From assembly GCA_016839265.1 (NCBI GenBank), contig JAEOUO010000004.1, forward strand, positions 223-32,222: a stretch of 32,000 nucleotides of DNA. The letters run 5' to 3'. Shown here in pieces: positions 15,343 to 30,214 of this stretch. The stretch comes from Candidatus Odinarchaeota archaeon. GTDB taxonomy: Archaea > Asgardarchaeota > Odinarchaeia > Odinarchaeales > Odinarchaeaceae. The notes under the pieces were generated by a model that was given only the letters and a program-made list of their open reading frames with translations, had not been told where the DNA came from and did not search any database. Numbering within the stretch: the first letter of the stretch is position 1; each line of letters opens with the position of its first letter. The translations under genes were made by a program, and so were the position numbers.

Positions 15343-16061
15343 TCTAGCATTCTCTTCAAAACTCTTATTCTATCCGCGCTCACCTTACCGTTAACTCTAT
15401 CACCGTTCTCACAGACCAAGCTGCGTACACCTAGAATATCGCAGCCTATTTTTTTAACAGTACGCAGATGCGCTAATCTCACTCCACCTGCAAGCGCTGT
15501 TTGAAAACCTTTACTTTTACACTTCTCAGTGAATTCTTCAAGCTCTTCAACACTCATAAAGTCGAAGGTGCTTTTCCCATTTTTAATAAAAGTATCTATC
15601 ATCAATACGCTTACATCTAAGTCTTCAACTAAATCCGGTAAACGCATCGGATTCACGGATCCTATTCTACTCCAATCAGAGTAACCGGCTGTAACTATTC
15701 TACCAGGAAACCCGAATTCTTTTTTAACTTTACACAACATTTTAAGAAACTCTCTAATCGCCTGCTCTGAAACAGGTTTATATAAGCCGATTTTCGCGTA
15801 ATCCACACCAAGACTTAAAACACCTAGCAACGCCTGAGTGATTAATCCAGGTTTATCTAAACTATCACACACAGCCGCGCTGACCTCCATACTAGGAGGC
15901 GTTAGCTTCTTCACTTCTCTAATAATCCATGGATATTGACCGCCTAAAGAACCCTCCAACGGGTTTTTAACATCTATAATATCAACACCGCTTTCAATAA
16001 CTGTTTCAGCTTCTTCAACGTTTTTAGGGCTTACTAAAAGCTTCGTGAAGCACCCCTCCAT
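15339..16061 (-). CDS. mfnB: (5-formylfuran-3-yl)methyl phosphate synthase (4-HFC-P synthase, DUF556)
   Basis: Motifs KLLVSP..VEEA, DIIDVKNPLEGSLG, YAKIGL, MIDTFIKNGKS, ALAGG and DILGVRS. Confidence 0.92.
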   Translation of the reverse strand: MEGCFTKLLVSPKNVEEAETVIESGVDIIDVKNPLEGSLGGQYPWIIREVKKLTPPSMEVSAAVCDSLDKPGLITQALLGVLSLGVDYAKIGLYKPVSEQAIREFLKMLCKVKKEFGFPGRIVTAGYSDWSRIGSVNPMRLPDLVEDLDVSVLMIDTFIKNGKSTFDFMSVEELEEFTEKCKSKGFQTALAGGVRLAHLRTVKKIGCDILGVRSLVCENGDRVNGKVSADRIRVLKRMLD

Positions 16062-16087
16062 ATCCGTTAAAACCTGAAACTAAAATC

Positions 16088-17026
16088 CTATGATAGAAGA
16101 GTTTTATTTATCTCCTCTTTTAACTGTGCATCTAACCTCTCATCCAACGGTTTACTTCTAAGCTCTCTTATAAAACCTAGTATATAGTTTATCCTCTCAT
16201 CGAATTTATTCGTGTTCTTCAAATTATATAATAAATCTAAAAGCGCATCATACACACGCTCGTTTACAGCCCCCCCTTCTAAGGTTTCTCTAAGCTTTTC
16301 TAAAGCGTCTTCAACACATGTTACACGTTTCACACCGATATTCTCCAAGTCTTTTCTAATATTATTTTCAATAAGCTTTAAACCGTAAATGAAACTCTCC
16401 TCAGATGATTCGATTACAGCTCTAAGATCTATAACAGTGCTAACTATTTTTTTAACAGCATTCTTTAAGTCACCGGTCTCAGACTCTCCTATAACGCTTT
16501 GTTTTTCTAGAATACTTGTTAAACCCTCCTCTATTTTATTCAATTTCTCTAGAACATTATTTAATTCAGTACCGGTTTCACCGCCAGGTTTAATAGTTGA
16601 AAGCTTCTCGTTAACAGAATCTAATCCCTCTTGAACTGTTTGAGTTAACTGTTCAATATTAGCTTGAAGATTTTCAAGCCGGTTAACAACTTCATTAAAT
16701 GTAACACGACTCTCCCCTGTCTCTGAAACATCTCCCTTCACCTCGCTTAATAACTGTTTTAACTCTTCAAAACCTGCTTTAATATTCTGCTCTAGATTAC
16801 TTGCTTGAAGCTTACCCACCTCTTCTGTTAAAGCTGTGATAACACTTGTTAACCCTTCAACATCCACTCCAGCTCCAGCCGCCGGTGTAAGACCCCCAGA
16901 CTTAAGCTTCTCTATAAGCTCGTCAACCGAAACCTTCAAGCTGCCAACCTGTCTTATAATATAACGGCGACCCTCAACCATCTCCTCCATCTTCTTATTT
17001 ATCTCTTCTAAAACGTTTTGACTCAA
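16088..17026 (-). CDS. Hypothetical all-helical coiled-coil protein with repeated Gly/Glu/Thr linkers
   Basis: Heptad-rich ORF with host-like codon usage. I place the start at TTG 17026, behind a GAGGGGT SD; the ORF track starts at 17044. Confidence 0.75.
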   Translation of the reverse strand: MSQNVLEEINKKMEEMVEGRRYIIRQVGSLKVSVDELIEKLKSGGLTPAAGAGVDVEGLTSVITALTEEVGKLQASNLEQNIKAGFEELKQLLSEVKGDVSETGESRVTFNEVVNRLENLQANIEQLTQTVQEGLDSVNEKLSTIKPGGETGTELNNVLEKLNKIEEGLTSILEKQSVIGESETGDLKNAVKKIVSTVIDLRAVIESSEESFIYGLKLIENNIRKDLENIGVKRVTCVEDALEKLRETLEGGAVNERVYDALLDLLYNLKNTNKFDERINYILGFIRELRSKPLDERLDAQLKEEINKTLLS

Positions 17027-17132
17027 CTCAGCTACCCCTCGCAAATTACTTATCTATAAATTAATGTTTTAGCTTAATTAATATTACCTTTAATTTAAAT
17101 AATACTTTAACTTTAAACTCCGAGGGTTTTCA

Positions 17133-17594
17133 TTGATTATCAGGCGAGCTGATAAATCTGATTTAAATAAAGTATACTTGATAGAGAAGGATAGCTTCCA
17201 GGAGCCTTGGAGTAGAAGATTCTTCGAGTATTTTATAGATTCAGATAACACGGTTTTCCTAATCGCTGTAGAGGAGGATGTCCTCGGATACATCATCTGG
17301 CAGCTTGAATCAACTAGTAAACTTAAAAATTTTGAAGACTTGAACACCGGGCATCTGCTGAATTTAGCTGTAGGAAGAGAACACCGGAGGAGGAAAGTCG
17401 CCTCCAGCTTACTTGAAAGATTATTCATGGAAATCGATAAATATAAACCGGTGGCTACTTATCTTGAAGTCGCCTGCTCTAATCAAACTGCTGTGAATCT
17501 ATACCTTAAATTTAATTTTCAAATTTTATCTTTAATACCGAAATATTATAGATTAGGCGGTGACGCTTACCTTATGGTTAAAGTCTTGTTTTAA
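17133..17594 (+). CDS. rimI: RimI/Ard1-type protein N-acetyltransferase (GNAT)
   Basis: Motifs IEKDSFQEPWS, HLLNLAV...HRRRKVAS.LL, YLEV..SN..A..LY.K.NF and IPKYY..GGDAYLM. Confidence 0.9.
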   Translation: MIIRRADKSDLNKVYLIEKDSFQEPWSRRFFEYFIDSDNTVFLIAVEEDVLGYIIWQLESTSKLKNFEDLNTGHLLNLAVGREHRRRKVASSLLERLFMEIDKYKPVATYLEVACSNQTAVNLYLKFNFQILSLIPKYYRLGGDAYLMVKVLF

Positions 17595-18109
17595 ATTAAA
17601 CTCTTCAACTCTTTTAAAACCATTTGTTTAACGTTCACCCAGTTACCTCGAGTTAACGTGTAAACTTTCGTATCAGCCCGCTTTTTCACACTCTCCGTGA
17701 AAGCGTTATCGTAGAGCATAATCGAGCCGAAAACTCGACCGGAATCCAAGCTAGCTGTTATAAAATCTCTGAAAACCTTAGATGATAACTCCATTCTCCC
17801 TATTTCATCAACCACTATTAAATCGTAGCCGCCGGTTTTAACCTCCTCCTCTAAAGCTTTCACAACAGTTTCAAGGTTATCTAAGAAAACACCGTATTTA
17901 CCTATGAATACACTGCTCTGCTTATTATCAACTGAAGCTAGCATACTCTCTAAGCCGGAGAATGTTCTAATCTTAAACCCTACGCGTCTACCCTGCTTTA
18001 AAACCTCTTCTGTTATGAAGCCTACAGTTTTTTTACCGAGCTCTTCAACCACGCTTTTAATCAACGTGGTTTTACCGGTTCTAGGCGCTCCGGTAACTAG
18101 AATATTCAT
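17591..18109 (-). CDS. THEP1-type NTPase (NTPase_1, COG1618)
   Basis: Walker A GAPRTGKTT, then GFITEEV, GRRVGF, GKYGV and VDEIGRMEL. Confidence 0.92.
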   Translation of the reverse strand: MNILVTGAPRTGKTTLIKSVVEELGKKTVGFITEEVLKQGRRVGFKIRTFSGLESMLASVDNKQSSVFIGKYGVFLDNLETVVKALEEEVKTGGYDLIVVDEIGRMELSSKVFRDFITASLDSGRVFGSIMLYDNAFTESVKKRADTKVYTLTRGNWVNVKQMVLKELKSLI

Positions 18110-18124
18110 CTCATAAACCCCTTG

Positions 18125-19576
18125 TTAAGCTGCAAGCTTCTTCAGAAACTTAGCGCATAAAGCAGCTTCATCCAGTGTCTTCTTCAACTCTCCCTCTTTT
18201 AATTCATAATCTTCTACTGTGAGCTCGCCGATTTCTTTTTTAGCTTTCAACAATTCTAATTCTTTTTTCAAAACATCGCTTAAACTATTTAAATCCGTAA
18301 GCTGCTTCTCCACGAATTTTTTAAATAACACGTTTTTCTCTTCAAGACGGGCTAGTTTCTCAGAATACTCTTTTTTTACTTGAAGGTAGGCGCTTTCACT
18401 AATCTTGCCTTCTCTTCTACGCTCCTCTAATACTTTAAGTCTTTTTTCTAATGTAAGCGTTTCTTGAACAGCACCCTCCCCTGGTAGCCTCTTATACTCT
18501 GAGTTTAAATCCCGCTCTAATTTATTTAATTCATCTATCTCGTTTTTAATTTTCTGAAGTTCAACTCTTAATTGTTTTAGATCTCCTCCAGCGTCTATTT
18601 TTAAAAGAATCCCATCTAGTATCTTCTCATATTTTCTTTTAGTAGCCTTCAATCTTTCAAGATGCTCTCTTAACAATACCTGTTTTTTTAAAACGTTAAA
18701 TGAGACCTCTTCTTCTTTAAGCTCTTCAATTATTAAGCGTGGTTTGATTTCAACCAGCCGCCGACCCTCCTCTACTATGCTTTTCAACCCGGTTCTCGGC
18801 GTGGCTCCTAAATCTTTTATTCTTAAAACTCTAGCTTTAATCCGTTTCACTTCTCCTTTTGAATAGAAAATAAACTCTTTATTCAAATTCATCAAATTAT
18901 TTTCATCTAAGCCGAGATTTCTAATATATGTGTTTAACGCGTTTAAATCCGCAGGCTCCTGGTGTCGTCCGAAAAACCTTATATTACACTGGCTGATAAC
19001 CTTCTTACTGATATCCGCCGGTCTCTGAGTAACCCATATAGAGTGCAACCCCCTCTTTCGACCTCTCTTCGCTACCTCCATAGAAAGATCTAAGAGTCTA
19101 CTATACCCCCCTCTCTCCGGGGCGATTATATGAGCTTCCTCCACTGCTAAAACACACGGCTTTTTCTCTAAACTAGCTGTTTTAAAAACGGCTTCAAGAA
19201 TCAGTGAATGTGTTTGAATCTGCTCGGAGGAGAGCAAATCCGAGGTGTCGAATAATAGGATTTGAAACTCCCCGCTGTAAACGCGCTTCACTATTTGAAT
19301 AGCGGATTCAAGGTTAAATCCTTCAAAGGATAGGTCTCCGCGGTTACCGCCTATAATAAGAGAAGAATACCAGTCTTTAAAAGCAGTATACTCCCCTTCA
19401 GGGTCTATTACAATAATAGGTATTTTTAAATCAGCTAATTCTTCTAAGATCACCTTAGCAAGATAGCTTTTCCCGCTACCAGACTGACCTGTGATGAAAA
19501 CTCGGAGCCCCTCCTCCTCATAACTGTTTAAATCAATCTGACAGTTTACACCGATATTTAAAATCAATAAAACCAT
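18125..19576 (-). CDS. HerA/FtsK-like ATPase (DUF87) lacking a HAS barrel, fused to a C-terminal coiled-coil (CdvA-like) region
   Basis: Motifs FITGQSGSGKS, IDPEGEY, Walker B LAVEEAH, arginine finger GRKRG, VTQRPA and SQC. The C-terminal ~200 aa are coiled coil with two G(K/E)(I/L)xxxxY motifs. Confidence 0.85.
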   Translation of the reverse strand: MVLLILNIGVNCQIDLNSYEEEGLRVFITGQSGSGKSYLAKVILEELADLKIPIIVIDPEGEYTAFKDWYSSLIIGGNRGDLSFEGFNLESAIQIVKRVYSGEFQILLFDTSDLLSSEQIQTHSLILEAVFKTASLEKKPCVLAVEEAHIIAPERGGYSRLLDLSMEVAKRGRKRGLHSIWVTQRPADISKKVISQCNIRFFGRHQEPADLNALNTYIRNLGLDENNLMNLNKEFIFYSKGEVKRIKARVLRIKDLGATPRTGLKSIVEEGRRLVEIKPRLIIEELKEEEVSFNVLKKQVLLREHLERLKATKRKYEKILDGILLKIDAGGDLKQLRVELQKIKNEIDELNKLERDLNSEYKRLPGEGAVQETLTLEKRLKVLEERRREGKISESAYLQVKKEYSEKLARLEEKNVLFKKFVEKQLTDLNSLSDVLKKELELLKAKKEIGELTVEDYELKEGELKKTLDEAALCAKFLKKLAA

Positions 19577-19660
19577 CTCAGAATGCTAATCTGAAAATAA
19601 ATATTTTTTTGTTGAAATAATAGTTTTCACGTTTAAATTAATCTTTCTAAACGATAAAAT

Positions 19661-20323
19661 TCAACACGATTTTAATCTTTTAACTAAGTTTAAAACACGT
19701 CGCTGAAAATCATTTAAATCTTTCACCGTGAACCTACCGGCTTTAACACCATCCCTGTCTAAATAATAGGATTTAACCCCCAGCTTTCTAGGAATCAAAT
19801 AATCTTGAATCCAGTTATCCCCTACATGCGCAACCTTATTCGCATCCACCTTCAACTCCATGCATACACGTTTAAAAACCCCTGGATCACTCTTCGTTGA
19901 ATTAAAATCAGTTGAAGCTGAGAACACCCTCCTAAAATATTTTCTAATACGCTTAGTAGTTCGCTCCAAAAACTCCACAGCGGAGTTCGAGACAATAATC
20001 AAATCAAATCTCTCAGCTAAACCCTCTAAAACCCTCTCAACCTCAGGGTAATAGGAGATAACACCCTCATACTTATTTAAAACCTCCTCGTAACCTGTTA
20101 AACCGAATCTATCAAACCAGTAACTTATCTGATACCATTCTACGCGTTGATCCCCAACCTTCTCATACTCCCCTATAATAAACTTCTTAGCCTCCTCGAA
20201 GCTAACCCCTTTTTTATCAGCATACAAGCAGGGAATCGCCTCCTCCCAGATTAAATCAGCATATCTTCTAGTCGCTAAAGTCCCGTCCACGTCAAAAGAT
20301 AAAACCTTCACCATAACATCCAA
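19661..20323 (-). CDS. HAD-superfamily hydrolase
   Basis: Motif I FDVDGTL, motif II VSNS, motif III K, motif IV HVGDN...D. Confidence 0.92.
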   Translation of the reverse strand: MDVMVKVLSFDVDGTLATRRYADLIWEEAIPCLYADKKGVSFEEAKKFIIGEYEKVGDQRVEWYQISYWFDRFGLTGYEEVLNKYEGVISYYPEVERVLEGLAERFDLIIVSNSAVEFLERTTKRIRKYFRRVFSASTDFNSTKSDPGVFKRVCMELKVDANKVAHVGDNWIQDYLIPRKLGVKSYYLDRDGVKAGRFTVKDLNDFQRRVLNLVKRLKSC

Positions 20324-20410
20324 CCACTAATAGTTTTCTATAAACCCGGCTTATAATATAAACCCCATAAGCGAAAATAGAGCATAAACACTTATAAAAT
20401 CTTAGACTAC

Positions 20411-20445
20411 AAAAAACAATTATAAAAAATTAAAAAATAAAAGTT
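20411..20445 (-). terminator. Probable oligo-U archaeal terminator after the Lrp-RAM gene
   Basis: The minus strand reads AACTTTTATTTTTTAATTTTTTATAATTGTTTTTT directly after the stop codon. Confidence 0.45.
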
Positions 20446-20676
20446 TTAGAACGGCAGAGTAATAGAACTTAACGTTCGAGTAACACCTGGAATCCCCTGA
20501 ATCTTCTCAATAATACCCTTAATACCCTCCATGTCATCCGCAGCAATCCTGACAATAATATCATACGGCCCTGTAATAGCGTAATACTCTTTAACACCGT
20601 CAATACCCTTCAACTTCTCTAAAACATCATGAATCTTACCAGTCTCAACCTCAACCAACATAAAAACAATCGCCAT
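20446..20676 (-). CDS. Stand-alone Lrp/AsnC ligand-binding (RAM) domain protein
   Basis: Motif IDGVKEYYAITGPYDIIVRI...IQGIPGVTRTLSSI. GGTGAG SD upstream. No HTH. Confidence 0.9.
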   Translation of the reverse strand: MAIVFMLVEVETGKIHDVLEKLKGIDGVKEYYAITGPYDIIVRIAADDMEGIKGIIEKIQGIPGVTRTLSSITLPF

Positions 20677-20705
20677 AAAAGATCACTCACCAAACATCAT
20701 TTTCA

Positions 20706-20760
20706 ACTCTCAAAGTGTGAGAACTCAAACAATAACCTCGAAATCTCACACTCCAAGAGC
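20706..20760 (-). other. Long hairpin / inverted repeat upstream of the Lrp-RAM gene
   Basis: Perfect 9-bp inverted repeat AGTGTGAGA (20714-20722) / TCTCACACT (20744-20752). On the minus-strand RNA it extends to a 17-bp stem with four G-U pairs. Confidence 0.55.
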
Positions 20761-20978
20761 GAAAAACTTTATACTATAATAACAATAATTAGCAATATAA
20801 TCTTATCGTTACCTATGTTCATAATTTCTCATTCAATTTTTAAACCAATTATATAAAAATGCTTTTATTCCAGACATAAAATTTGAATTATAAGAATGTG
20901 CAATTTCCCTAAAACGTGAAGATAGATTTTAGCGAGTTAAAACGTATTGAAATTTTAGTAATATAGAATTATTTTAAA

Positions 20979-22109
20979 TTATTTGCTTTTTCCTTTTACT
21001 GGTTCAAGATAGTTTTTTATCAAGTAGTTCCAGATCCGTTTTTCTTTCACCTCGATAAGTGTCACCTGCTTTCCCAATATTTTGATTATTTTCTTATCCG
21101 CTTTTCGAGGCCATTCCTCATACCATCTATACTTAACGTTTATTTGATGAGCGTAAGTTACGCTCTTCGATTTATTATAATAGTACTTAGATTCTTTAGT
21201 CACTTCAGCTATCCCTAAAACTCTGCACGCCGAATAAATAATGAAAACATCTCCCTCCGAGATTTGATTTTTGAAATTCCAGAGCTGATCGGTGGTATAT
21301 TTTATTTTAGTCTTTTCACCCCAAACTCTTTTAGCCTGTCGAGCAACTTCCCGTTTAAGTTCACTATATGAACTGAAACGTTTGAGGTCTCCCACTTCAT
21401 TCCATCCAATAGCTACGAATCCATCACCATTATCTTTAATAAATTGGAGCCATTCACTTTTCCAATATCGCGCCTTCTTGCCAGGGGAGATTTTCCAAAT
21501 TTTTTTAGGCTGGGGGCTTATTAATTTCTCTTTTATTTGAACAGGTGATGGCAAAGTATCTTCTTCACCCTTTATTTTAGAAGCTCTCTCGCTTATTTTG
21601 TTAGTTGCACTTGTATATTTTTTAACATCATCTTGAGTTAGATCTGGAGCCGTGTCAAAATAAAATTTGAAAAATTTTTCTGCATCTTTTAGAAATTCAT
21701 TGTTTTTCTCTTCTATTTTTACTAGTACATTTGCTTCCGCATTTTTACTCTGCGCAGCCTTAGTGAGGTTTGAAGAGCCGACCACTATAAATATCGACTC
21801 TCCATAGATTATGAACAGTTTTGGGTGAAAACCACGATTATCCCATCTTCTTATAGTGACCCCTTTTTTAGTTGAAAGCGTTAATAGAGTTTCCGCAGCC
21901 TCTTTATCTGTAATTCCAAGTTTACTAGATAAACCAAACACTATTCTTAGTTAACCACCTCTTTTAATCAACGAGTTAAAGCTTTCCATCAGCGCTTGTA
22001 ACCCGCTTTCTTTTACATAGGCTATTGCAACATCTACTCTAGTTGATTGACTAATTAATTTCGGTAGTTCCTCAGCCAGTGAAGGTCCGTCAAGAAATTT
22101 TATCTCCAT
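20979..22109 (-). pseudogene. PLD (HKD)-nuclease fused to an EVE/PUA-like domain, interrupted by one in-frame TAA; candidate Type IV restriction enzyme
   Basis: ATG 22109 (GGGGGT SD) encodes MEIKFLDGPS...VDVAIAYVKESGL...KRGG. TAA at 21953-21951 is followed in frame by LRIVFGLSS...HPKLFI...GSSNLT...NAEAN. The C-terminal domain has WKISPG, VAIGWN..GDL, GDVFIIYS..VLGIAEV. Confidence 0.8.
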
Positions 22110-22249
22110 AAAAACCCCCATCTTTATCTTTTACTATAATTTAAATTTATAACTTTTAAATAATTTTTATAGTTTCAAAATCCTTGATGATTTTTATAAA
22201 GAAGACCGCTAATTGTCTCATAGAAATTTATTGATTTATGTGGAATATT

Positions 22250-23302
22250 CTATTTAACTTCTAAAGTTAAATCGTTTTCTTGATATCCAAATAATGTCAG
22301 AATCTTTTTTGAAAGTTTAACAATAGCATTAGCACTAAGATTAGTTTCTACGTAAATATCTGTATTACTTATTTTTTCTGGGTGCCTTAACTCATTAGAA
22401 TTTTTAGAAAAATACGGTCTCTTTTTTCCTACCAAATTCAATACCATCCCAAATTGGTTTCTATGAGACAAAAACATGATTTCACATATCTTAATCAACA
22501 TTCCTACCCACGATTTTACTGGATATTTTTCACTCCTAAAAGTAAACGAGATAATCGACTTTCCCGTGTATTCTTCTTTTTCAGAAATTATAGGGGGGGC
22601 TGCCACTTTTGTTTTTGATGGTTTTACTAGTGTGGGGGTAGTAATAGTTTTTAAAAACTGTGCAATTGCTTCGCTATCTGGTTTATAACCGCATATTTTT
22701 TCTGTTGTAACAGACAAAAGTTCAACTAAAATCTCATCCTGCTCTTTTATGATCTTTTCCCAAGCTTTAGGAATACTTTCTTCAATTAATTCCTGTTTTC
22801 GTCGGTTTTTATAGATATTTTCAGCATTTTCTACAGCTTTACTAGAAATTATATTTTGCTTTGCAAGAAACATTTCAAATTTCTCTGCTATGTCTTTCGC
22901 GTCTTGTTCGCATAAATCAATGTTATAAAATTTTCTCTGCTCCCAACTTCCTTCAGTTAAAGGTAGATAAAACCACCAGCTGATCCCATTAGTGAGGATT
23001 GCAAGCTTAACCCCTTCTTTAAATGAATATTTTAAAAGCTGATCTTGATGTTTTTCTAAATCTTCACCAGGCTTCTTGACTTCAATAAAAACCTTGTTTT
23101 TATCACCACACCTGAGAGCGTAATCCACTTTACCGGCTTCAATAGGATATTCAGGATAAACCTCGTCTATATTATAAAAATTCCAACCCAAACAATCTAA
23201 AATTTTCAAAACCACAGCCTGCTTAACAGCCGCCTCATCAAAAAAACTAAGTCTACTATCTTGTTGAAAACTATTTATTAAATCAAATAACCTTTCATTC
23301 AT
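22250..23302 (-). CDS. HsdR-N-type PD-(D/E)XK nuclease with a SeqA-like C-terminal domain
   Basis: N-terminal EAAVKQAVVLKILDCLGW, VYPEY, VDYAL, FIEVKK, QLLKY, AILTNG.SW.FY. C-terminal LVGKKRPYF...HPEKISNTDIYVETNLSA. Confidence 0.8.
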   Translation of the reverse strand: MNERLFDLINSFQQDSRLSFFDEAAVKQAVVLKILDCLGWNFYNIDEVYPEYPIEAGKVDYALRCGDKNKVFIEVKKPGEDLEKHQDQLLKYSFKEGVKLAILTNGISWWFYLPLTEGSWEQRKFYNIDLCEQDAKDIAEKFEMFLAKQNIISSKAVENAENIYKNRRKQELIEESIPKAWEKIIKEQDEILVELLSVTTEKICGYKPDSEAIAQFLKTITTPTLVKPSKTKVAAPPIISEKEEYTGKSIISFTFRSEKYPVKSWVGMLIKICEIMFLSHRNQFGMVLNLVGKKRPYFSKNSNELRHPEKISNTDIYVETNLSANAIVKLSKKILTLFGYQENDLTLEVK

Positions 23303-23616
23303 CCTATCAAATCCTTAACTCTGTATGTCTTTTAAATATATACTTTTAAAATTATTTATATAAAATTTCTATGATTTCTATTTTATTAAACTGATTAATT
23401 TAATTTGCGCTATTACTTAGTTATAAACTTTTATAAATAAAATATTAATACTCCCAGCTAATAATTTTAATCAAATCTATTAAATTTTTAAATCTTAACT
23501 GTTACTTAGCGTTTGATAAAAAACTATTTTTATAGAATATAAGTTAAGTATGATCCTTTACCATGTTAATAAAAAATTATTTAATGTTGAAGAACTCTTT
23601 TATTAATGGGGATTAA
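23303..23616. promoter_or_regulatory. Very AT-rich divergent promoter region; candidate unwinding element
   Basis: Hand count gives 29 G+C in 180 nt (23341-23520, ~16%). Contains several TTTATA/TTTAAATATA boxes. Confidence 0.5.
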
Positions 23617-26600
23617 ATGACATTTACGCTGACAGAACCTACGGCGGCTTCTGAAATTAAGGAGCTTATTAATCAGATTATTCAGGAGGAGAATTTACCT
23701 TTAGACTCAGCAAAAGTGGAGTTAATGGATTCTAGAGGGCATAGACCCGACATAATTATATTCGATCGATTAAATAAACCAATATGCGCTATAGAAGTAA
23801 AACGTCCTTTTATATCCCCGTATCAAATTGAATTATTTGAACAAGCATTACAATACGCTAACACTGAAGGAATCCGTTTCTTCGCAACTTTTAATTTTAA
23901 CACTCTCGTATTATGGGAGACATTTAAAGAAGGGGTTCCAATTAGGGATAGACGATATAAAGAATATTTTACCGCTGATATAATTGATTTACACGATCTT
24001 CTACAGCTCTCAGTCAAGAATAATATCAAAAAGGGTCTTAGAGAATTTTTACAAGACTTAGTAAAACTTCAAGTGGCTAAAAAGACCGAGGAGATTCTGC
24101 CGACTCTTGAATTTGATAAAATCTTCATTGACTATCTTCATTCCCTTTTGAACTCAATGAAAATCCCTTTAGTTACTGAACTCAATAAAAAACTTGATAT
24201 TGATCCTGTTTTTAAAAATAAACTCTTAGAATGGTTAACTACACAAGGATGGGATTCTACATATATAGATGTTAAGGGCGTAATAGATGTTGTAGCCCGC
24301 CAGTATATTTTACTTCTCTTAAATAAGATAATGTTTTATAAAATTTTAAGCTCACGTTATAAAGAGATAAGACCACCTAATTACAAGCTTTTAAGTCTCC
24401 CAGATGAGTTACCTACATTGAAAATACCTGAAGATATCACTGATGGTGGTAATTTACAGCGCATTTTAAAGAGTTTTTTTGAAAAAGTTCTGCTCATAGA
24501 CTATGAAACAATCTACGAATCCGATTTCCTGGATGAGATTAAACTACCAGACCCCCTTGTGTCACCTATAAGAATACTTGTAAATGAATTTGATAAATAT
24601 GATTTCACCAAGATTGACTATGAGGTGCTCGGGAATATTTTCGAACGGCTAATACCTGAAAAAGATCGTCATCTACTAGGCCAATACTTCACAAGATCGG
24701 ATGTGGTTGACCTAATTGTTGCCAGCTGCGTTAAAAATAAAAATGATGTTATTCTCGATCCTGCTTGCGGGGCAGGGACATTTTTAATCCGCGCCTATTC
24801 CCGCTTAAAATATCTTGGTGCTGAAGGTCCTCACAGTAGTTTTCTAAATAAATTATGGGGTATAGATATAGCTAAATTCCCAGCCCACTTAACCACAATT
24901 AATCTTGCTATAAAAGATTTATCGGAAAGAAATAATTATCCAAGAGTGATCTGCTCAGATTTCTTCAAAGTTTCACCAGGGACCAAGATTTACTCACCTT
25001 ATTTTATAACTGAAGGATTAGATAAAAAAAATTCCCGGCATGAACTCCCCTCGTTTAATGTAGTTATGACCAATCCCCCTTATACACGGCAGGAGGAGAT
25101 GGAGGAGAAACTTGAAGAAGGATATAAGAATACCGTAATAGAATTAATAGCAAAAGAAACTGGGATGACACTAGGTAAAAGAAGCAGTATTTACGCTTAC
25201 TTTTTCCTGCATGGAAGCGTTTTTCTAGGCGATGGAGGTAGGCTTGGTTTAATCACATCAAACTCTTGGCTTGATGTAGACTACGGTAAATATTTACAAG
25301 AATTTTTCTTAAAGAATTTTAAAATAAAATATATAATCGACTCTAAAGTAGAAAGATTTTTCGAAGACGCAGATATTAACACAGCGATAACAATCCTTGA
25401 GAAATGCAGAAATCAAGAGGAGCGCGATAATAATATTGTGAAATTTGTAGAGTTGAGAAAGAAGTTGCCTGAAGTTCTCTCATATTTTGGTGACCACGAC
25501 ACTGAATACGAGAAATGGACGGATAAAGAAAGATGGGCGGCTGTAGATAAATTTTTAGCATACCTCGATAAAATAAGCGGCATCACTATAAATGAAGAAA
25601 TAGGAGTAAGAGTCTACCCTAAAAATCAGAGAGAATTATATGAAGAAGGCCTTGAAGAGGGAAAATATGCCGGCTCAAAATGGGGTAAATATATTAAAGC
25701 CCCAGATATCTTCTTTAAAATATTAGAAAAAGGAAAAGACTTATTTATTCCTCTAAAAGATATTGCGGATATTACAGGAGGAATTATAACAGGTAAAAAT
25801 AATTTTTTCTATCTTAGAGAGAGTCAGATAAGAAACTTTGGAATAGAAGAAAAATTCTTGATTCCAGTGATTAAAACTCCTAAGGAATTAGGAAAAATTT
25901 ATTTTACTAAAAAAGATCTGAAATACAAGTTGTTCTTTGTTACGGAGGAAAGAAATAATATTAAAGGAACTAATGCATTAAAATATATTGAATATGGTGA
26001 AAAACAAGGATTCAACACTAACCCAACATTCAAAGCGCGAAAACATTGGTACCAAATACCAGAATTGAAACAAGCTGAACTATTATGGATTGATTTAAGA
26101 GGGGAAAAACATATTTGCCATTTGAACGTCGATAATGTACCATTTGAACATAATTTCTATGGTATAAATCCAAAAAAAATAAATAAAGAACTCTTATGCG
26201 CCTATCTAAACAGCACTCTTTCTTGGTTATTTATAGAAGTACTTGGTAGAAGCAGTTTAGGAGAGGGTGCAATAAGGTTGGTTGGACAGGATCTTAAAAA
26301 TTTTCCTACAATATTGCTTAAAGAGGGGGTGCCCGACTCTTTAAAGATTCAAAAGATTTTTGATAAACTAAAACACAGGGAGATTGAAAGCGTGTTTAAA
26401 GAAGTCGGCGCGAATAAACCCGAAGAAGTTTCCTTAGAAAAAGTTAACCAAGATGTAAGGGAACTTGATAAGGTAATAATTGGTGAAATTTTAGGTTTAA
26501 CTGATGAAGAACAATTAGAGGTTTACAGGGCGGTTGTTGACCTTGTTAAGTCGAGGATAGAAAAAGCCAAGAGCGTTGAGAGAAAAAGCAATAAAGAAGA

Positions 26601-27030
26601 GTTTTCCACGAACATAGACCAGATAAAAGACATAGTTTTGCATGGAATAGACAAGACAATAGTAGATGATGTGAAAAAGTTTATTCCAGAAAATTATGAT
26701 AATAGAGTGATTGAAATTAAAGCTTCGAAGAGTATTGAGGTTAAAGTTGATTTGCACGGTAAATTTAAGTTGGTAAGTGGTGAAGAAGAAGTTGAATTCT
26801 CTACTTTAGAGGAGGCTGAATATGCTAGATATATGTTGATGAGAGGTAAAGAGAGGATGGTAATTCCAAGAGATACGCAAATTTTACGTGATGTTCTTGT
26901 TAAGTTTAAGAAATTGGATAAGGCGATTAAAAATAGGATCAATGAATATTTGAAACAATTAGTGAGTAAGGAGAAAAAACGGAAATTAATAGAAGCTGAA
27001 TTATATAGGAAGATCTGGGCTGCTTTATAG
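23617..27030 (+). CDS. Type IIG fused restriction-modification enzyme (REase + N6-adenine MTase + TRD, Eco57I-like)
   Basis: N-terminal nuclease RPDIII...AIEVKRP...QALQYA, then GQYFT, motif I ILDPACGAGTFL, GIDI and motif IV NPPY. The C-terminal target-recognition region includes LCAYLNSTLSWLFIEVLGR. Confidence 0.88.
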   Translation: MTFTLTEPTAASEIKELINQIIQEENLPLDSAKVELMDSRGHRPDIIIFDRLNKPICAIEVKRPFISPYQIELFEQALQYANTEGIRFFATFNFNTLVLWETFKEGVPIRDRRYKEYFTADIIDLHDLLQLSVKNNIKKGLREFLQDLVKLQVAKKTEEILPTLEFDKIFIDYLHSLLNSMKIPLVTELNKKLDIDPVFKNKLLEWLTTQGWDSTYIDVKGVIDVVARQYILLLLNKIMFYKILSSRYKEIRPPNYKLLSLPDELPTLKIPEDITDGGNLQRILKSFFEKVLLIDYETIYESDFLDEIKLPDPLVSPIRILVNEFDKYDFTKIDYEVLGNIFERLIPEKDRHLLGQYFTRSDVVDLIVASCVKNKNDVILDPACGAGTFLIRAYSRLKYLGAEGPHSSFLNKLWGIDIAKFPAHLTTINLAIKDLSERNNYPRVICSDFFKVSPGTKIYSPYFITEGLDKKNSRHELPSFNVVMTNPPYTRQEEMEEKLEEGYKNTVIELIAKETGMTLGKRSSIYAYFFLHGSVFLGDGGRLGLITSNSWLDVDYGKYLQEFFLKNFKIKYIIDSKVERFFEDADINTAITILEKCRNQEERDNNIVKFVELRKKLPEVLSYFGDHDTEYEKWTDKERWAAVDKFLAYLDKISGITINEEIGVRVYPKNQRELYEEGLEEGKYAGSKWGKYIKAPDIFFKILEKGKDLFIPLKDIADITGGIITGKNNFFYLRESQIRNFGIEEKFLIPVIKTPKELGKIYFTKKDLKYKLFFVTEERNNIKGTNALKYIEYGEKQGFNTNPTFKARKHWYQIPELKQAELLWIDLRGEKHICHLNVDNVPFEHNFYGINPKKINKELLCAYLNSTLSWLFIEVLGRSSLGEGAIRLVGQDLKNFPTILLKEGVPDSLKIQKIFDKLKHREIESVFKEVGANKPEEVSLEKVNQDVRELDKVIIGEILGLTDEEQLEVYRAVVDLVKSRIEKAKSVERKSNKEEFSTNIDQIKDIVLHGIDKTIVDDVKKFIPENYDNRVIEIKASKSIEVKVDLHGKFKLVSGEEEVEFSTLEEAEYARYMLMRGKERMVIPRDTQILRDVLVKFKKLDKAIKNRINEYLKQLVSKEKKRKLIEAELYRKIWAAL

Positions 27031-27921
27031 TATTTTGTTTAGTGCTTGTTTTAGTGTGTTTGTTTGTTGTGTGATGTTTTTCCAGGGGTTTGGTGTGTTT
27101 TGTAGGTGTTGGAATATGTTGTTTATGTTGTAGGTTTTAGCGTTTAGGTTTTTGTTTTCTAAGTCTTTCCATGTTATGGGTGTTGCGATGGGCGCTGTTT
27201 TTTTAGCGCGTAGGGAGTATGGTGCGACTGAGGTTTGAGCGTATGCGTTTCTGGTTGTGTCTATGAAGAGTCTGTTTTTTCTTTTTTCTTTTCGTTGTTC
27301 GACGGTGATTTTATCCGGGTTGTTTTTAGCTATGTTTTTAGCGATTTTCTGGGCGAATAGTCGTGTTTGCTCGAAGGTGTGTTCTCTTTCTATTGGGATG
27401 ATTACGTGGACTCCTTTGGATCCGGTTGTCATAATAAAAGTGTTTAGTTCTAGCTTATCTAAGGTTTCTTTGATTAGGAGGGCGGTTTGCCGGACTGATT
27501 CGAAGTCTTCTGGTGTAGCTGGGTCTAGGTCGAATACTATTTTATCAGGGTGGTTTGGTTTATCGTATTTGGCGAGCCATATGTGGGGTGTGATGCAGGC
27601 TTGCTCGGTGATGTATAGGAGGGTTTCCTTGTTTTGGCATAACAGGTATGTGGTGTCTCCTCCTGTTTTATTATCTAGCTTGATTTTTTCTATCCATGGG
27701 GGGAAGTATTCCGGAACTTCTTTTTGGAAGAAGCCTTCTTTGCTTATTCCATCGGGGAAGCGGTGCATTGTTAATGGTCGATCTTTTAAGTATGGTAGCA
27801 TTAGATTCGCTATTTTTTCATAGTATTGTATTACTTGGAGTTTGGTGATTTTATCGTCCGGGTATAGTATTTTATCAGGGTTGCTGACTTGGATGACTTG
27901 TTTTCCTGCTTTAATCTGCAT
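27025..27921 (-). CDS. ligD: LigD-type primase-polymerase (NHEJ polymerase domain), stand-alone
   Basis: Motifs SNPDKILYP, RPLTMHRFPDGI, FFQK, VFDLDP, TTGSKGVHV, FIDTTRN and VAPYSLRA. Confidence 0.93.
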   Translation of the reverse strand: MQIKAGKQVIQVSNPDKILYPDDKITKLQVIQYYEKIANLMLPYLKDRPLTMHRFPDGISKEGFFQKEVPEYFPPWIEKIKLDNKTGGDTTYLLCQNKETLLYITEQACITPHIWLAKYDKPNHPDKIVFDLDPATPEDFESVRQTALLIKETLDKLELNTFIMTTGSKGVHVIIPIEREHTFEQTRLFAQKIAKNIAKNNPDKITVEQRKEKRKNRLFIDTTRNAYAQTSVAPYSLRAKKTAPIATPITWKDLENKNLNAKTYNINNIFQHLQNTPNPWKNITQQTNTLKQALNKIL

Positions 27922-27923
27922 TT

Positions 27924-28928
27924 TTAAGCCTCTGGGATTTCTTTTACTACTGTGCGGGGGTCTTTGTCTCTTCTAACTCCGAGTAGACGTGGATGGCGTA
28001 GTTTACCGGTTTTAGTCCACTCTGTGAAGCCTACTTCTACTACGATTTCAGGTTTCACCCAGGTGACGTTTTTCTCCCCTGTTTTATCATCGGTGGCGGG
28101 GGTGTTTTGTTTTAATGCTTCCAGTTGCCTGGTTAACTGGATTAAGAGCGTGCGGTTGAATCCTGTTCCGACTTTTCCAGCGTAGATGAGTCTATCTTTA
28201 TCATAGTATCCTACTAGTATCGCGCCTAATCCGATGCGTGAGCCTTTAGGCGGAGTGTAGCCGATGATCACGAACTCCTGTTCGTTAACGCATTTGAATT
28301 TCAACCAGTCTGTTGATCTTTTATGCTGATATTCGCTGTCAGCTCTTTTAGCGATTACTCCCTCCCATCCTTTTCTACAGGCTTCCTTATAGTATTTTAC
28401 GCCTTCCTTCCATATATGCTCGGTGTATCTTAACGGATCTTGGTAGGTTAAATGTTTTCTTAATAATTCTTTTCTTAATGTTAATGGGAGTTTTTCGATA
28501 AGATAGTTTTCAATGTATATTAGGTCGAAGATGTAGTAGTAGACTTTTATCTTTGATTTTAAAGCTTCCTCCCTGTTTTTTATTCCGATTCTTTCCTGTA
28601 GTTTGGAGAAACTGGTGTTGTCGCCTTGGAAGGCTACGATTTCACCGTCTATGATGAAGTCGGGGGTTTTCTGTTTTTCTAAGGCTTCAACGATCTCCGG
28701 GTAGGTGTCGCTGATGTCTTTTCTATTTCTGGATAATAGTTTGACGTGACCGTTTTTCTTAAATGCTAAGCATCGCTCTCCGTCTAGTTTACGCTCATAT
28801 ATCCAGTTTTCATCCGAGAACCGTTTACTGGTTAGGGTTGCTAGCATGGGGTCAACCCAGTCTGGTACGCTTGTTTTCACGAGTAGATTCCTGTATTTCT
28901 GGTCTACTTCGTCTAGGATGGTGTTCAT
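27924..28928 (-). CDS. ligD: LigD/LigC-type ATP-dependent DNA ligase (catalytic core + OB domain), stand-alone
   Basis: Motifs PMLAT, ERKLDGER (KxDG), IDGEIV, FDLIY, EGVIAK, WLKFK, GKVGTGF and LRHPRLLGVR.DK. Confidence 0.93.
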   Translation of the reverse strand: MNTILDEVDQKYRNLLVKTSVPDWVDPMLATLTSKRFSDENWIYERKLDGERCLAFKKNGHVKLLSRNRKDISDTYPEIVEALEKQKTPDFIIDGEIVAFQGDNTSFSKLQERIGIKNREEALKSKIKVYYYIFDLIYIENYLIEKLPLTLRKELLRKHLTYQDPLRYTEHIWKEGVKYYKEACRKGWEGVIAKRADSEYQHKRSTDWLKFKCVNEQEFVIIGYTPPKGSRIGLGAILVGYYDKDRLIYAGKVGTGFNRTLLIQLTRQLEALKQNTPATDDKTGEKNVTWVKPEIVVEVGFTEWTKTGKLRHPRLLGVRRDKDPRTVVKEIPEA

Positions 28929-29085
28929 TTAACCACTATTTTTATTTAATTAATTATTTGATTAATAATAATGTTTATATATTTTCCGTTTAATAAACTT
29001 CTATTGTAAGATGAGCCTATTAATATTTTTAATTTTTAAAATATAATAGGCTTCTAAATAAAAAACTCTATCGGTGATGTTAAAA

Positions 29086-29271
29086 ATGGTTGTTGATCCT
29101 GTTTGCGGAATGGAGTTCTCTGAAAAGGATGCGAAGTTGAAGTACACTTACGGTGACAAAGTGTACTATTTCTGTTGTGAGATGTGTATGGAGAAATTCG
29201 TGAAGAACCCGGAAAAATACGGTGCCTCTAAACCTGTTAAACGCGGCGGATGCGGTTGCTGTAGTTTTTAA
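29086..29271 (+). CDS. YHS/TRASH-domain metal-binding protein
   Basis: DPVCGM...[22 protein letters not shown] at 29073 favours ATG 29086; the ORF track starts at 29074. Confidence 0.88.
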
Positions 29272-29867
29272 ACTCTGAGACTCATTTTCCGGTAATAATA
29301 CTCTTCTCCATTTATTTTTATAATTCTCGATTTAATATTTTCGAACCCTTTATTTATATAAAACTTTAATGCTAAACTATTCTTTTCTTCGACTTCTAGC
29401 ATTATTCTATTACAGTTTGTTTTAGCAGCTTCCATTCTAGCGTATTCTAATAGTTTCGAGCCTATTTTTCTCCCCTGATATTCTGGGTGAACGGCTAGAA
29501 AACATATGTAGTAATCTGTTTTCTTTAACGGTCCGAAGAAAAAGGCTAGTTTTATTATGTTATGGTTCGGAATAATTTTATTTCTGATGTAGTGTTTTAC
29601 TATTTTTACAGCTGTTTTTAACTGGTTTTTCAAGTGTAGGCTTCCCGGATAACTTAGCATCATCCCTACTGGTTTACCGTTTACTTGCGCGTATTTGACG
29701 TTTATATGGCTGAAGCTGTTATCTTGGTTTAAATATAGCTGGGTTAAGATGTTTTCTGTGTCAGGTTTGAAAGCATTTTTTAGAAAGCTCTCGCCGGTGG
29801 AGAGGGCTAGTTGAATGTAGTCTTTTACTTGTTCTTTTCTAGCCGCTGTTATTTTTATTTTAACCAT
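29268..29867 (-). CDS. GNAT-family N-acetyltransferase
   Basis: Motifs [22 protein letters not shown] and [14 protein letters not shown]...GF. Confidence 0.88.
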
Positions 29868-29901
29868 TTGAGATACCCTTTAATATTCAATAGTTTAATG
29901 C

Positions 29902-29914
29902 TTTTTATATAAAA
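29902..29914. promoter_or_regulatory. Probable bidirectional TATA box between the GNAT and membrane-protein genes
   Basis: TTTTTATATAAAA lies about 24-35 bp from both divergent starts. Confidence 0.5.
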
Positions 29915-29937
29915 TACAATTATAGGAGTGTTTGTTT

Positions 29938-30144: not shown

Positions 30145-30179
30145 TTTATCTTTTTTTCTTTTTGTTTTTTATATTTTTT
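30145..30179 (+). terminator. Probable oligo-U terminator
   Basis: TTTATCTTTTTTTCTTTTTGTTTTTTATATTTTTT follows the stop codon directly. Confidence 0.5.
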
Positions 30180-30214
30180 AATAATGTTTTTATAGTTGAA
30201 TATAACATTGTTAT

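Follow-up and report, generated by a model that had tools for sequence, protein, structure and literature searches.

The gene at positions 22250..23302 (minus strand) of the window, the 32,000-nt stretch of DNA analysed here, encodes a protein in which a PD-(D/E)XK nuclease domain is joined to a domain resembling the C-terminal domain of SeqA. On balance, this protein is probably a solitary, homodimeric, modification-dependent (type IV-like) restriction endonuclease, with N6-methyladenine (m6A) as the mark that it most likely reads, and its family most likely cuts modified foreign DNA. The gene is an intact ORF of 350 aa with an ATG start, a TAA stop codon (22250-22252, minus strand) and no internal stops, as established from the ORF list and its translation. 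From the N to the C terminus the protein consists of the nuclease domain, a helical region, a disordered linker and the SeqA-C-like domain. This architecture had been proposed in a first-pass annotation, made from the letters of the DNA alone, and domain searches and the fold bear it out. All peptide strings quoted there occur in the translation; the linker TITTPTLVKPSKTKVAAPP, for instance, spans residues 219-237, and SWVGMLIKICEIMF...LFGY forms the C-terminal block. The E. coli SeqA segment given there is the true sequence from NC_000913.3.

Nuclease head, helical region and SeqA-like domain

Residues 1-130 (22913..23302, minus strand) form a nuclease domain of the HsdR-N/type IIG-head type, recognized by Pfam (HSDR_N, 8.2e-9; HSDR_N_2, 5e-4), by PHROG 4225 'endonuclease' (2e-23) and by Foldseek matches to DrdV, the HsdR fragment 3h1t and BpuSI. 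In PADLOC-DB v2 no system model covered the whole protein, and the nuclease head alone matched, with the type IIG model REase_MTase_IIG aligning to residues 5-160 at 4.7e-7. The translation and an alignment of homologues place the catalytic core at D60 ... E74-V-K76 (DYALRCGDKNKVFIEVK; 23075..23125, minus strand), and all 58 homologues compared keep D60, E74 and K76 unchanged. The same holds for Q88 and Y92 of the Q88-x-x-x-Y92 motif (QLLKY in the translation; 23027..23041, minus strand), a RecB-family/HsdR accessory nuclease motif described for EcoR124I HsdR (PMC2475608). The domain keeps intact catalytic residues and is predicted to be active.

The nuclease head is followed by a helical middle region (residues 131-221), for which AlphaFold2 (AF2) predicted helices at residues 155-186, 190-204 and 210-219. 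Prediction of two copies of the protein placed a symmetric homodimer interface within this region, at residues 169-220 (22643..22798, minus strand), with an ipSAE of 0.49 against 0.00 for the best control. Of 30 proteins solved as one-chain pairs, 20 reached this value, as did 1 of 23 whose solved structure is a single chain. The runs for the present protein shared at least 70% of their contacts, with a partner pLDDT of at least 82, and P178, W181, E201, C204, G205, P208 and F216 of the helical region are invariant in the family. The model thus supports a homodimer formed through the helical region. Residues 222-242 (22577..22639, minus strand) make up a Pro/Thr/Lys-rich linker that is predicted to be disordered (pLDDT < 50) and differs in length and sequence between homologues.

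The remaining residues, 243-350 (22253..22576, minus strand), form a beta-hairpin followed by a SeqA-like core. The AF2 model of this isolated domain has a pLDDT of 96, and in a Foldseek search with it the sole confident matches were SeqA chains (prob 1.00, TM 0.62-0.67), the next match having a prob of 0.06. VIA-align likewise placed SeqA at the top, with 3fmt at Z 11.0 (rmsd 2.1 Å, 94 aligned) and 3sk7 at Z 10.4 (rmsd 2.2 Å, 90 aligned), followed by the Scml2 SLED domain at Z 7.0 (rmsd 3.4 Å, 91 aligned). By both searches the fold is SeqA-like, not the RAMA or wHTH fold that the first-pass annotation had named as the outcome speaking against its proposal.

At the sequence level the resemblance is remote and becomes visible with profiles. 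A single-sequence phmmer search of the PDB with the whole protein returned chance matches only, such as beta-amylase at E 0.13, and a family profile was required for SeqA to surface, upon which V. cholerae SeqA came first (E 0.0026). The Pfam SeqA model (PF03925) matched the whole protein at E 3.9e-4 (20.9 bits) and the isolated domain at E 5.5e-5 (23.6 bits), both below its gathering cut-off of 25.5 bits; it matched 55 of 58 homologous C-terminal domains at E <= 0.01 (best 1.7e-7), and three relatives of the same family exceed the cut-off (P0121, 64.2 bits; P0128, 40.2 bits; P0122, 34.9 bits). The NCBIfam SeqA model (NF008389) matched residues 239-343 only, at E 1e-4 and 22.2 bits against a cut-off of 185. 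Comparison of the family profile with the single E. coli SeqA sequence by hhalign gave moderate support (prob 58%, E 1e-4, 57 columns); the 120 SeqA homologues listed are all at least 82% identical and therefore unsuitable as a diverse alignment for profile-profile comparison. A feature search of the ESM Atlas with the reader domain gave one cluster named after SeqA (0.85) among others without a name, which serves as a lead only, and nothing in PHROGs matched this domain. The sequence likeness to SeqA goes beyond chance, and the C-terminal domain is SeqA-C-like in both sequence and fold.

The alignment with SeqA claimed in the first-pass annotation was reproduced by HMMER and hhalign, which pair SeqA L113/G115/R118/Y120/F121 with L290/G292/R295/Y297/F298, and P137/V140/T143/V147/T149/N150 with P308/I311/T314/V318/T320/N321; SeqA T151-N152-T153 corresponds to L322-S323-A324. 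Two segments stand out. The first, G292-K-K-R-P-Y-F298 (22409..22429, minus strand), aligns with SeqA G115-R116-T117-R118-V-Y120-F121, which we take to be the phosphate-contact segment of SeqA. Its G, Y and F are invariant among the 58 homologues, R occupies position 293 in 51 of them and position 295 in 56, K occupies position 294 in 56, and the block is kept across 182 domain copies from 150 representative proteins. The second, E319-T-N-L-S-A-N325 (22328..22348, minus strand), aligns by hhalign with the base-contacting loop of SeqA, I148-T-N150-T-N152-T-G, in which N150 and N152 are key DNA-loop residues (PMC2691817). N321 takes the place of N150 (N in 47 of 58 homologues) and S323 that of N152 (S in 51 of 58), equivalences drawn from sequence alignment and not from the structure of a complex, and E319 at the I148 position is invariant in all 58. 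Because N152 is replaced by Ser, giving TNLSAN instead of TNTNTG, neither GATC specificity nor recognition of the methyl group is to be assumed.

Spread, island and neighbours

Homology searches returned 1430 homologues at E <= 1e-3, the best 120 of which are 56-64% identical to the protein and nearly all full-length. Homologues with 40-62% identity occur in Thermotogota, Aquificae, Omnitrophota, Chloroflexota, Planctomycetota, Cloacimonadota, Methanococcales, Methanobacteriota, Nanoarchaeota and others, a phyletic spread typical of horizontal gene transfer. To call the nuclease new, as the first-pass annotation did, is an overstatement given more than 1400 close full-length homologues, many of them with both PF04313 and PF03925 in public precomputed annotation. 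The precomputed annotation also assigns PF28130 to some homologues; a Pfam scan of one of these (P0058) gave no PF28130. Plasmid and phage collections held distant matches only, mostly to the nuclease head. The host is indeed an archaeon, with archaeal SSU and LSU rRNA models scoring best in their clans, and the gene is accessory: a full-length match was found in none of 40 related genomes (three of the same genus, 93-98% complete, and 37 further relatives).

The gene lies in a 6.3-kb island (20812..27108) of three genes, together with an interrupted PLD-EVE gene (20979-22130) and a type IIG R-M gene encoding an m6A methylase-nuclease (23617..27030). The head-to-head position of the nuclease-SeqA gene and this m6A methylase gene was correctly recognized in the first-pass annotation; the two are separated by a shared, AT-rich divergent intergenic region of 314 bp (23303..23616, from the sequence and ORF coordinates). 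The insertion occupies a variable chromosomal spot. In the complete same-genus genome G001, the counterparts of positions 14014-20811 and 27109-32000 of the window are separated by 148 bp, and genome G002 carries an amino-acid permease there. GC content is lower across the island (0.29-0.36 in 1-kb steps from 21001 to 27000), and a search for att-like direct repeats flanking it returned AT-rich chance matches only. This is a small, recently inserted defence island, and the true type I system of the host is on another contig. A recent paralogous origin of the island's two nuclease heads was considered and rejected, as they are only remotely alike (BLASTP E 0.12). Between them there is also a 17-nt perfect inverted repeat that encodes a shared FKEGV peptide, which we take as coincidence.

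No conserved partner gene emerged from all-versus-all clustering of 914 ORFs at 80 loci or from a Pfam scan of 139 adjacent ORFs, in which 153 Pfam families were each seen at most three times. A DNA methylase was the immediate neighbour in 3 of the 139 adjacent ORFs, an N6_N4 methylase cluster lay within 8 kb at 4 of the 80 loci, no type IIG cluster recurred among the 80, and integrases lay within 8 kb at 9. Since no neighbour is conserved across these loci, the adjoining type IIG methylase is incidental, and methylase adjacency, to which the first-pass annotation had given weight, is not a feature of the family. These counts bear directly on a partnership with the type IIG enzyme, by which the nuclease would read the m6A that this enzyme places on one strand and either spare self DNA or cut abnormally methylated DNA. 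Such a partnership would suit two divergent genes that have an intergenic region in common, came in the same insertion and both encode a nuclease head of the HsdR-N type. The pairing is not conserved, the two heads resemble each other only remotely, and a nuclease guided to the mark of its own host would kill that host; we regard the partnership as quite improbable.

The island setting also bears on a housekeeping role like that of SeqA or MutH, in which the protein would sequester an origin, track new DNA or nick for strand discrimination in repair. In favour of such a role, the layout of dimerisation module, linker and SeqA-like reader echoes SeqA, and the gene, which the first-pass annotation placed at a possible origin, sits at a local strand-skew switch. 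The sister genome that lacks the insertion nevertheless has the same skew switch at its empty junction, the orc1/cdc6 genes are located elsewhere in the genome, and the polarity of the switch is opposite to that at the main orc1/cdc6 locus. The absence of the gene from all 40 relatives and its horizontal pattern of occurrence further argue against housekeeping. SeqA orthology itself was rejected: the match to NF008389 falls far short of its cut-off (22.2 bits versus 185), the gene is not core, the host has no Dam, and the N-terminal oligomerisation domain of SeqA (PF17206) gave no match in the protein, the HSDR_N nuclease standing in its place, whereas true SeqA homologues carry PF17206 together with PF03925. 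We give a replication or repair role very little credence.

The mark that the protein may read

Of the three roles offered in the first-pass annotation, type IV-like restriction thus fits best, because the protein is solitary, patchily distributed, horizontally moved and located in a defence island, and because its reader is shuffled among nucleases and NTPases; the repair nickase and the replication-linked factor are unlikely for a gene absent from 40 relatives. Intact nuclease residues are combined with a domain of a type that includes established readers of modified DNA, such reading being predicted here, and no cognate protective methylase accompanies the gene, the pairing with the adjoining type IIG gene not being conserved at 80 loci.

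The shuffling of the reader is extensive. The SeqA-like domain is carried by 2067 clusters (50% identity), in which it is fused to HSDR_N (one to three copies), Mrr_cat, an SF1 helicase with an MTES_1575 REase, KAP/AAA_16 NTPases, or DUF7226 with DpnI_C, and it is also found standalone and in tandem arrays. A defence-system source for the SeqA fold, as suggested in the first-pass annotation, is plausible because the module occurs in a wide range of phyla, bacterial as well as archaeal, and in many architectures. The same survey can be read in another way, namely that the SeqA-like domain is a methylation-indifferent DNA-binding or targeting domain and the protein another kind of nuclease, which could be an R component with an unlinked methylase, a mobile-element competition or homing-type nuclease, or an otherwise controlled effector. 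The Scml2 SLED domain, next after SeqA in the structural comparison (Z 7.0), indicates that the fold is not tied to methyl reading, which is itself a prediction for the SeqA-like domain; standalone and tandem-array domains exist without a nuclease, and relatives of the nuclease head are encoded by phages. Against this, a solitary active nuclease with no linked protective methylase at 80 loci would be toxic unless its target were absent from the host, and a module shuffled among effectors of the Mrr_cat, MTES_1575 and NTPase kinds behaves as modification sensors do. We therefore consider a methylation-indifferent nuclease unlikely and favour the modification-dependent one.

As to the mark, the 97%-complete host genome contains no match to a Dam-family methylase (PF02086), which speaks for the restriction reading. 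Several other m6A methylases are encoded in it, among them a type I system and the type IIG gene, so that an m6A-dependent nuclease would need a sequence context that those enzymes do not create. Among genomes carrying the family, 21 of 50 have a strong, near full-length match to a D12/Dam-family methylase. This lack of avoidance argues against a simple rule of cutting G-m6A-TC, and, since the D12 class is not solely GATC-specific, the co-occurrence leaves the target unsettled. The observed/expected ratio of GATC in the host genome is 0.76, the second lowest of the 16 palindromic tetramers, a depletion that is mild and uninformative. That Dam-family methylases are not avoided would also suit the same fusion reading a mark other than m6A (5mC or 4mC, a hypermodified base or a backbone modification), or marks that differ by subfamily. 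Further points for such a mark are the loop, which departs from that of SeqA (S323 for N152, invariant E319 for I148), and the variability of its positions in the wider family (T 63%, N 65%, S 62% and N 43% in 182 domain copies). The sole characterised relative of the fold reads m6A, and the fusion partners include DpnI_C, from an enzyme whose wH domain is a known m6A reader (PMC11037411); a different mark is accordingly a minor possibility, and m6A the preferred candidate.

In the mechanism that we propose for m6A-dependent restriction, two subunits would pair through the helical region (residues ~169-220), each bearing a SeqA-like domain tethered by a flexible linker of ~20 residues. This domain would dock on duplex DNA via the conserved G-[RK]-K-R-P-Y-F segment, and its E-T-N-L-S-A-N loop would read bases in the major groove, the mark most likely being m6A in a short context not made by the host. 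Binding of the mark would bring the two PD-(D/E)XK heads (D60/E74/K76, QxxxY) onto nearby DNA, which would then be cut. As a more speculative extension, which we hold to be doubtful, the module may retain the defining property of SeqA and bind adenine-methylated sites only when one strand is methylated, making the protein a hemimethylation-dependent restriction nuclease and SeqA a domesticated offshoot. It would then be directed against foreign DNA, either while this replicates in a cell whose methylation regime differs or after it has come from such a cell, or against DNA that type IIL/IIG enzymes have marked on one of its strands, and gamma-proteobacterial SeqA would descend from an older, pan-prokaryotic defence sensor.

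Comparison with known systems

In structure and by profile, residues 1-160 match best the nuclease domains at the N terminus of type I HsdR and type IIG/IIL enzymes (EcoR124I HsdR; BpuSI, 3S1S; DrdV, 7LO5), with which the protein has the D...ExK core and QxxxY in common. Unlike these enzymes, it lacks helicase/translocase, methylase and specificity domains in its 350 aa, which makes misnomers of 'type I restriction endonuclease' and 'subunit R', the names used in databases; identity as a type I R subunit was rejected for want of an SF2 helicase domain. The present assignment corrects these misleading names, together with 'negative regulator of replication initiation'.

SeqA is found in the gamma-proteobacteria. 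Its C-terminal domain (PF03925; E. coli, V. cholerae; PDB 1LRR, 1IU3, 3FMT, 3SK7) has the same fold and a remote but consistent sequence homology, and its residues G115/R118/Y120/F121, P137, T149 and N150 are kept here. In both proteins the reader domain is set on a flexible linker apart from a dimerising module (the dimer here being predicted). Unlike SeqA, the archaeal protein has an extra N-terminal beta-hairpin on its reader domain, a fused nuclease, no PF17206, and Ser in place of N152 (loop ETNLSAN versus ITNTNTG); its family occurs in archaea and many bacterial phyla, and its gene is accessory, not core, in a host without Dam. If the proposed reading is true, SeqA, so far a lineage-restricted replication factor, would have its evolutionary origin in defence modules.

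R-M-type fusions with SeqA domains are mentioned in the 2016 paper of Iyer, Zhang and Aravind (PMC4738411), where the SeqA-type domain of RAMA-SeqA and other fusions is likewise a fused DNA-binding or m6A-reading module in an R-M context; the main text of that paper mentions the SeqA-RAMA fusion, and we did not find the HSDR_N-SeqA architecture in it. In the literature we found no experimental work on the activity, binding or methyl dependence of any SeqA-domain nuclease, and no characterised modification-dependent enzyme with a SeqA-type sensor. Interest is tempered by the size of the family, by the visibility of both Pfam domains in public annotation and by a mark that computation does not settle.

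The known sensors of modification-dependent restriction enzymes are winged-helix, SRA and PUA/EVE/YTH domains and a few others. The reader-nuclease type IV and type IIM enzymes (DpnI and wH-fusion m6A-dependent enzymes, PMC11037411; PUA/EVE/SRA-nuclease fusions, PMC6765204, PMC7897488) resemble the present protein in combining a PD-(D/E)XK nuclease with a separate candidate sensor in a single polypeptide, with no cognate methylase, a place in defence islands and a patchy, horizontally transferred distribution. It differs from them in its SeqA-fold sensor, its HsdR-N/type IIG head and its domain order of nuclease, dimeriser, linker and reader, and its modification dependence is predicted. Should the domain read m6A, and above all should it distinguish hemimethylated sites from fully methylated ones, it would represent a new sensor class for type IV restriction, and the family could supply enzymes for mapping adenine methylation states.

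Domain architecture and fold of the putative reader-nuclease

The studied gene (window 22250..23302, minus strand) is an intact ORF of 350 codons with an ATG start (ORF list, translation), and its translation contains all peptide strings quoted in the first-pass annotation. That annotation had proposed an HsdR-N PD-(D/E)XK nuclease, which is upheld by Pfam, Foldseek, the PADLOC type IIG model and invariant catalytic residues. HSDR_N was matched at residues 58-115 (E 8.2e-9) together with HSDR_N_2, the Foldseek matches of the head were DrdV, the Vibrio HsdR fragment 3h1t and BpuSI, and the PADLOC model covered residues 5-160 (4.7e-7); PHROG 4225 'endonuclease' was also matched (2e-23). D60, E74 and K76 are invariant in 58/58 aligned homologues, as is Q88xxxY92, the RecB-family QxxxY motif whose importance was shown in EcoR124I HsdR (PMC2475608). 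Residues 1-~160 are thus an HsdR-N/type IIG-type PD-(D/E)XK head.

AlphaFold2 modelled the whole protein with pLDDT 85 and the isolated C-terminal domain with pLDDT 96; helices fill residues ~131-221, followed by a disordered stretch at 222-242 (pLDDT < 50). Prediction of a two-copy complex gave an ipSAE of 0.49 against 0.00 for the best control, a value attained by 20/30 proteins solved as one-chain pairs and 1/23 solved as single chains, with contact agreement between runs of at least 70% and partner pLDDT of at least 82. The predicted interface is symmetric, spans residues 169-220 and includes the invariant P178, W181, E201, C204, G205, P208 and F216. The model supports, rather than shows, a homodimer, and the resulting layout of nuclease, dimeriser, flexible tether and reader would echo the dimeriser-tether-reader logic of SeqA.

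Both its fold and remote sequence homology mark the C-terminal domain as SeqA-like. In a Pfam scan of the whole protein, PF03925 (SeqA C-terminal domain) matched residues 263-343 at E 3.9e-4 and 20.9 bits, under the 25.5 cut-off, and the NCBIfam SeqA model matched residues 239-343 at 1e-4, far under its full-length cut-off. A collection of 5.8 billion proteins held 1430 homologues at E <= 1e-3, the best 120 of which show 56-64% identity and are nearly all full-length; among the matches listed, many already carry PF03925+PF04313 in their precomputed annotation. When 58 family C-domains (residues 243-350 of the query) were scanned singly, 55 matched Pfam SeqA at E <= 0.01 (best 1.7e-7) and no other Pfam family recurred. 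The profile of their alignment, searched against all PDB sequences, ranked Vibrio cholerae SeqA (3sk7) first (E 0.0026) and E. coli SeqA third (E 1.2), and hhalign aligned it to E. coli SeqA over 57 columns (prob 58%, E 1e-4). Foldseek comparison of the domain model with the PDB returned five SeqA chains (3fmt, 3sk7, 1lrr, 1iu3) at prob 1.00 (TM 0.62-0.67, rmsd 1.9-2.8 A), with no non-SeqA chain above prob 0.06. In VIA-align, a search of 48,161 representative chains independent of Foldseek, SeqA scored Z 11.0 (rmsd 2.1 A, 94 aligned) and Z 10.4 (rmsd 2.2 A, 90 aligned), followed by the Scml2 SLED domain (Z 7.0, rmsd 3.4 A, 91 aligned). SeqA chains therefore top both structural searches, and a RAMA or wHTH fold, named beforehand as the contrary outcome, was not seen.

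The DNA-contact segments and spread of the reader domain

The E. coli SeqA segment quoted in the first-pass annotation is correct (seqA translated from NC_000913.3). In the HMMER and hhalign alignments, SeqA G115-R116-T117-R118-V-Y120-F121 corresponds to G292-K293-K294-R295-P-Y297-F298, P137 to P308, and I148-T149-N150-T151-N152-T153-G154 to E319-T320-N321-L322-S323-A324-N325. N150 and N152 are the key residues of the SeqA DNA-binding loop (Chung et al., PMC2691817); the equivalent of the first, N321, is retained (N in 47/58 homologues) and that of the second, S323, is serine (S in 51/58), next to an invariant E319. The signatures G-[RK]-K-R-P-Y-F-S and [YF]-V-E-T-N-L-S-A are kept in 182 domain copies from a diverse set of 150 representative proteins, so that the DNA-docking surface looks conserved, whereas the putative base-reading loop is the reader family's own. 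The GATC specificity and methyl recognition of SeqA cannot be transferred to this protein.

When 1.84 billion representative proteins were searched with the profile, the reader domain turned up in 2067 clusters, 939 of them at E <= 1e-10. Pfam scans of 20 representatives revealed HSDR_N followed by 1-3 reader copies, Mrr_cat fusions (homologues P0140 and P0160), AAA_16/KAP NTPase fusions (P0184, P0191 and P0168) and free-standing domains of 110-160 aa. Three relatives are unusual: P0180, a 2028-aa protein with SF1 helicase, MTES_1575 REase and DUF3320 that ends in one reader copy; P0122 (1147 aa), largely 5-6 tandem copies; and P0128 (1107 aa), which combines DUF7226, DpnI_C, a TFIIB repeat and two reader copies with no recognised nuclease. 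Exchange of this kind between nuclease and NTPase effectors matches the behaviour of conflict-system sensor domains. Since DpnI is known to read m6A through its wH domain (PMC11037411), the presence of DpnI_C beside the reader points to a setting of adenine methylation. In the precomputed annotation of at least four homologues (P0058, P0085, P0105 and P0120), some from Methanococcales, PF28130 stands in place of PF03925. This family, absent from our Pfam scan of P0058, may be a newer model for the SeqA-like domain itself or for the helical region.

A solitary gene on a recently inserted island

The host is archaeal, with archaeal SSU and LSU models best in their clans, and its assembly (1.35 Mb, 6 contigs) is 97% complete. 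No full-length match to the studied gene was found in 40 related genomes, including 3 of the same genus at 93-98% completeness; four weak matches covered the nuclease head alone, in frames of ~740-900 aa. DNA comparison revealed that window 14014-20811 and 27109-32000 are separated by 148 bp in the complete same-genus genome G001 (G001:C1:1174418-1174566), which makes window ~20812-27108 an insertion of 6.3 kb that carries three genes: a PLD-EVE reader-nuclease, the studied gene and a type IIG enzyme (1137 aa; HSDR_N_2, N6_Mtase/Eco57I and TaqI_C in Pfam). Its GC is below that of the flanks, and no flanking direct repeats were found. The spot, between AsnC-like and LigD primase-polymerase genes, varies within the genus: 148 bp in G001, a 556-aa amino-acid permease in a second congener, G002, and the island in the host. 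Two separate genes, for a LigD primase-polymerase and an ATP-dependent ligase (27025-28928, minus strand), abut the island and, being conserved in same-genus genomes, are not part of it. Because homology to G001 starts again at 27109, the LigD-Pol gene ends in ~28 codons (27025-27108) that are specific to the host genome and have a 6-bp overlap with the type IIG stop.

The PLD-EVE gene (20979-22130, minus strand) carries a single in-frame TAA at 21951-21953, where a 59-codon frame (…VDVAIAYVKESG…LIKRGG) leads directly into a 323-codon frame with the remaining PLD and EVE domains; Pfam PLDc_2 is matched in this downstream frame from profile position 50 onward only. It is probably a nonsense-mutated pseudogene, and possibly a split gene restarting at GTG 21941. 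A perfect 17-nt inverted repeat (23009-23025 / 23921-23937) joins the studied gene and the divergent type IIG gene and encodes F-K-E-G-V in both. Apart from the repeat, the two nuclease heads share only remote similarity (BLASTP E 0.12), and the repeat is probably a coincidence.

The first-pass annotation had given weight to the head-to-head m6A methyltransferase, a pairing that is not kept across the family. Scanning a single genome for each GTDB species yielded 80 loci at 37-62% identity, spread over Thermotogota, Aquificae, Deferribacter, Omnitrophota, Chloroflexota, Planctomycetota, Cloacimonadota, Acidobacteriota, Bacteroidota, Methanococcales, Methanobacteriota, Methanomethylicales, Nanoarchaeota and others. 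Clustering of 914 ORFs gave no neighbour in more than 9/80 loci besides the family itself; the largest cluster was tyrosine integrases (9/80), and an N6_N4 methylase cluster occurred in 4/80. Likewise, the 139 flanking ORFs matched 153 Pfam families, each at most 3 times. With no conserved neighbour, the gene is solitary, and the methylase adjacency in the window is not a family trait.

The first-pass annotation had placed the gene at a possible origin. The local strand-skew switch is real (window 20000-28000; GC skew ~ -0.4 at 20-21 kb and +0.4 at 26.5-27.5 kb, both extremes over minus-strand genes), and its equal presence at the empty G001 junction makes it a feature of the chromosome, not of the island. 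Polarity and cdc6 positions speak against the origin reading: cumulative GC skew on host contig 1 peaks at ~500 kb beside the best cdc6 match, with polarity opposite to the window's switch, and that contig carries the three host orc1/cdc6 genes, at 392, 490 and 511 kb. In G001 they lie at 503-625 kb, and the insertion site, at 1174.5 kb, is roughly opposite them on the 1.4-Mb chromosome. A terminus-like or local compositional feature fits better than an origin, and in either case a gene that sister species lack is no conserved origin factor.

Candidate mark and relation to known systems

Were the enzyme a cutter of G-m6A-TC, carrier genomes should avoid Dam. This was not seen: 21/50 carriers encode a strong, near full-length D12-class methylase, although D12 enzymes are not all GATC-specific and the test is therefore blunt. 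A simple Dam-site target gains no support from it. The host genome lacks a Dam-family methylase, and its GATC sites are only mildly depleted (observed/expected 0.76). Besides the type IIG gene next door, it encodes an N6_N4 methylase, a further N6_Mtase and, on a different contig, a type I system.

On balance we lean towards a solitary nuclease, encoded on a recently inserted defence island, that would act as a dimer and depend on DNA modification, its SeqA-like sensor probably reading m6A. From the initial interpretation this keeps the reader-nuclease architecture and fold and drops the methylase pairing and the replication context. A SeqA orthologue was ruled out by the missing PF17206 domain, the non-core status of the gene and a host without Dam, and a type I R subunit by the absence of a helicase. 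Among the PADLOC models none covers the whole protein, and the literature searched yielded no characterised enzyme with a SeqA-like sensor fold; the architecture is already catalogued but uncharacterised. Iyer, Zhang and Aravind (PMC4738411) name the SeqA domain as a RAMA-domain fusion partner in R-M contexts, so that SeqA-type readers in restriction-related proteins are not a new idea. By analogy, the protein would work like the reader-nuclease type IV/IIM enzymes, among them DpnI and wH fusions and the PUA/EVE/SRA fusions.
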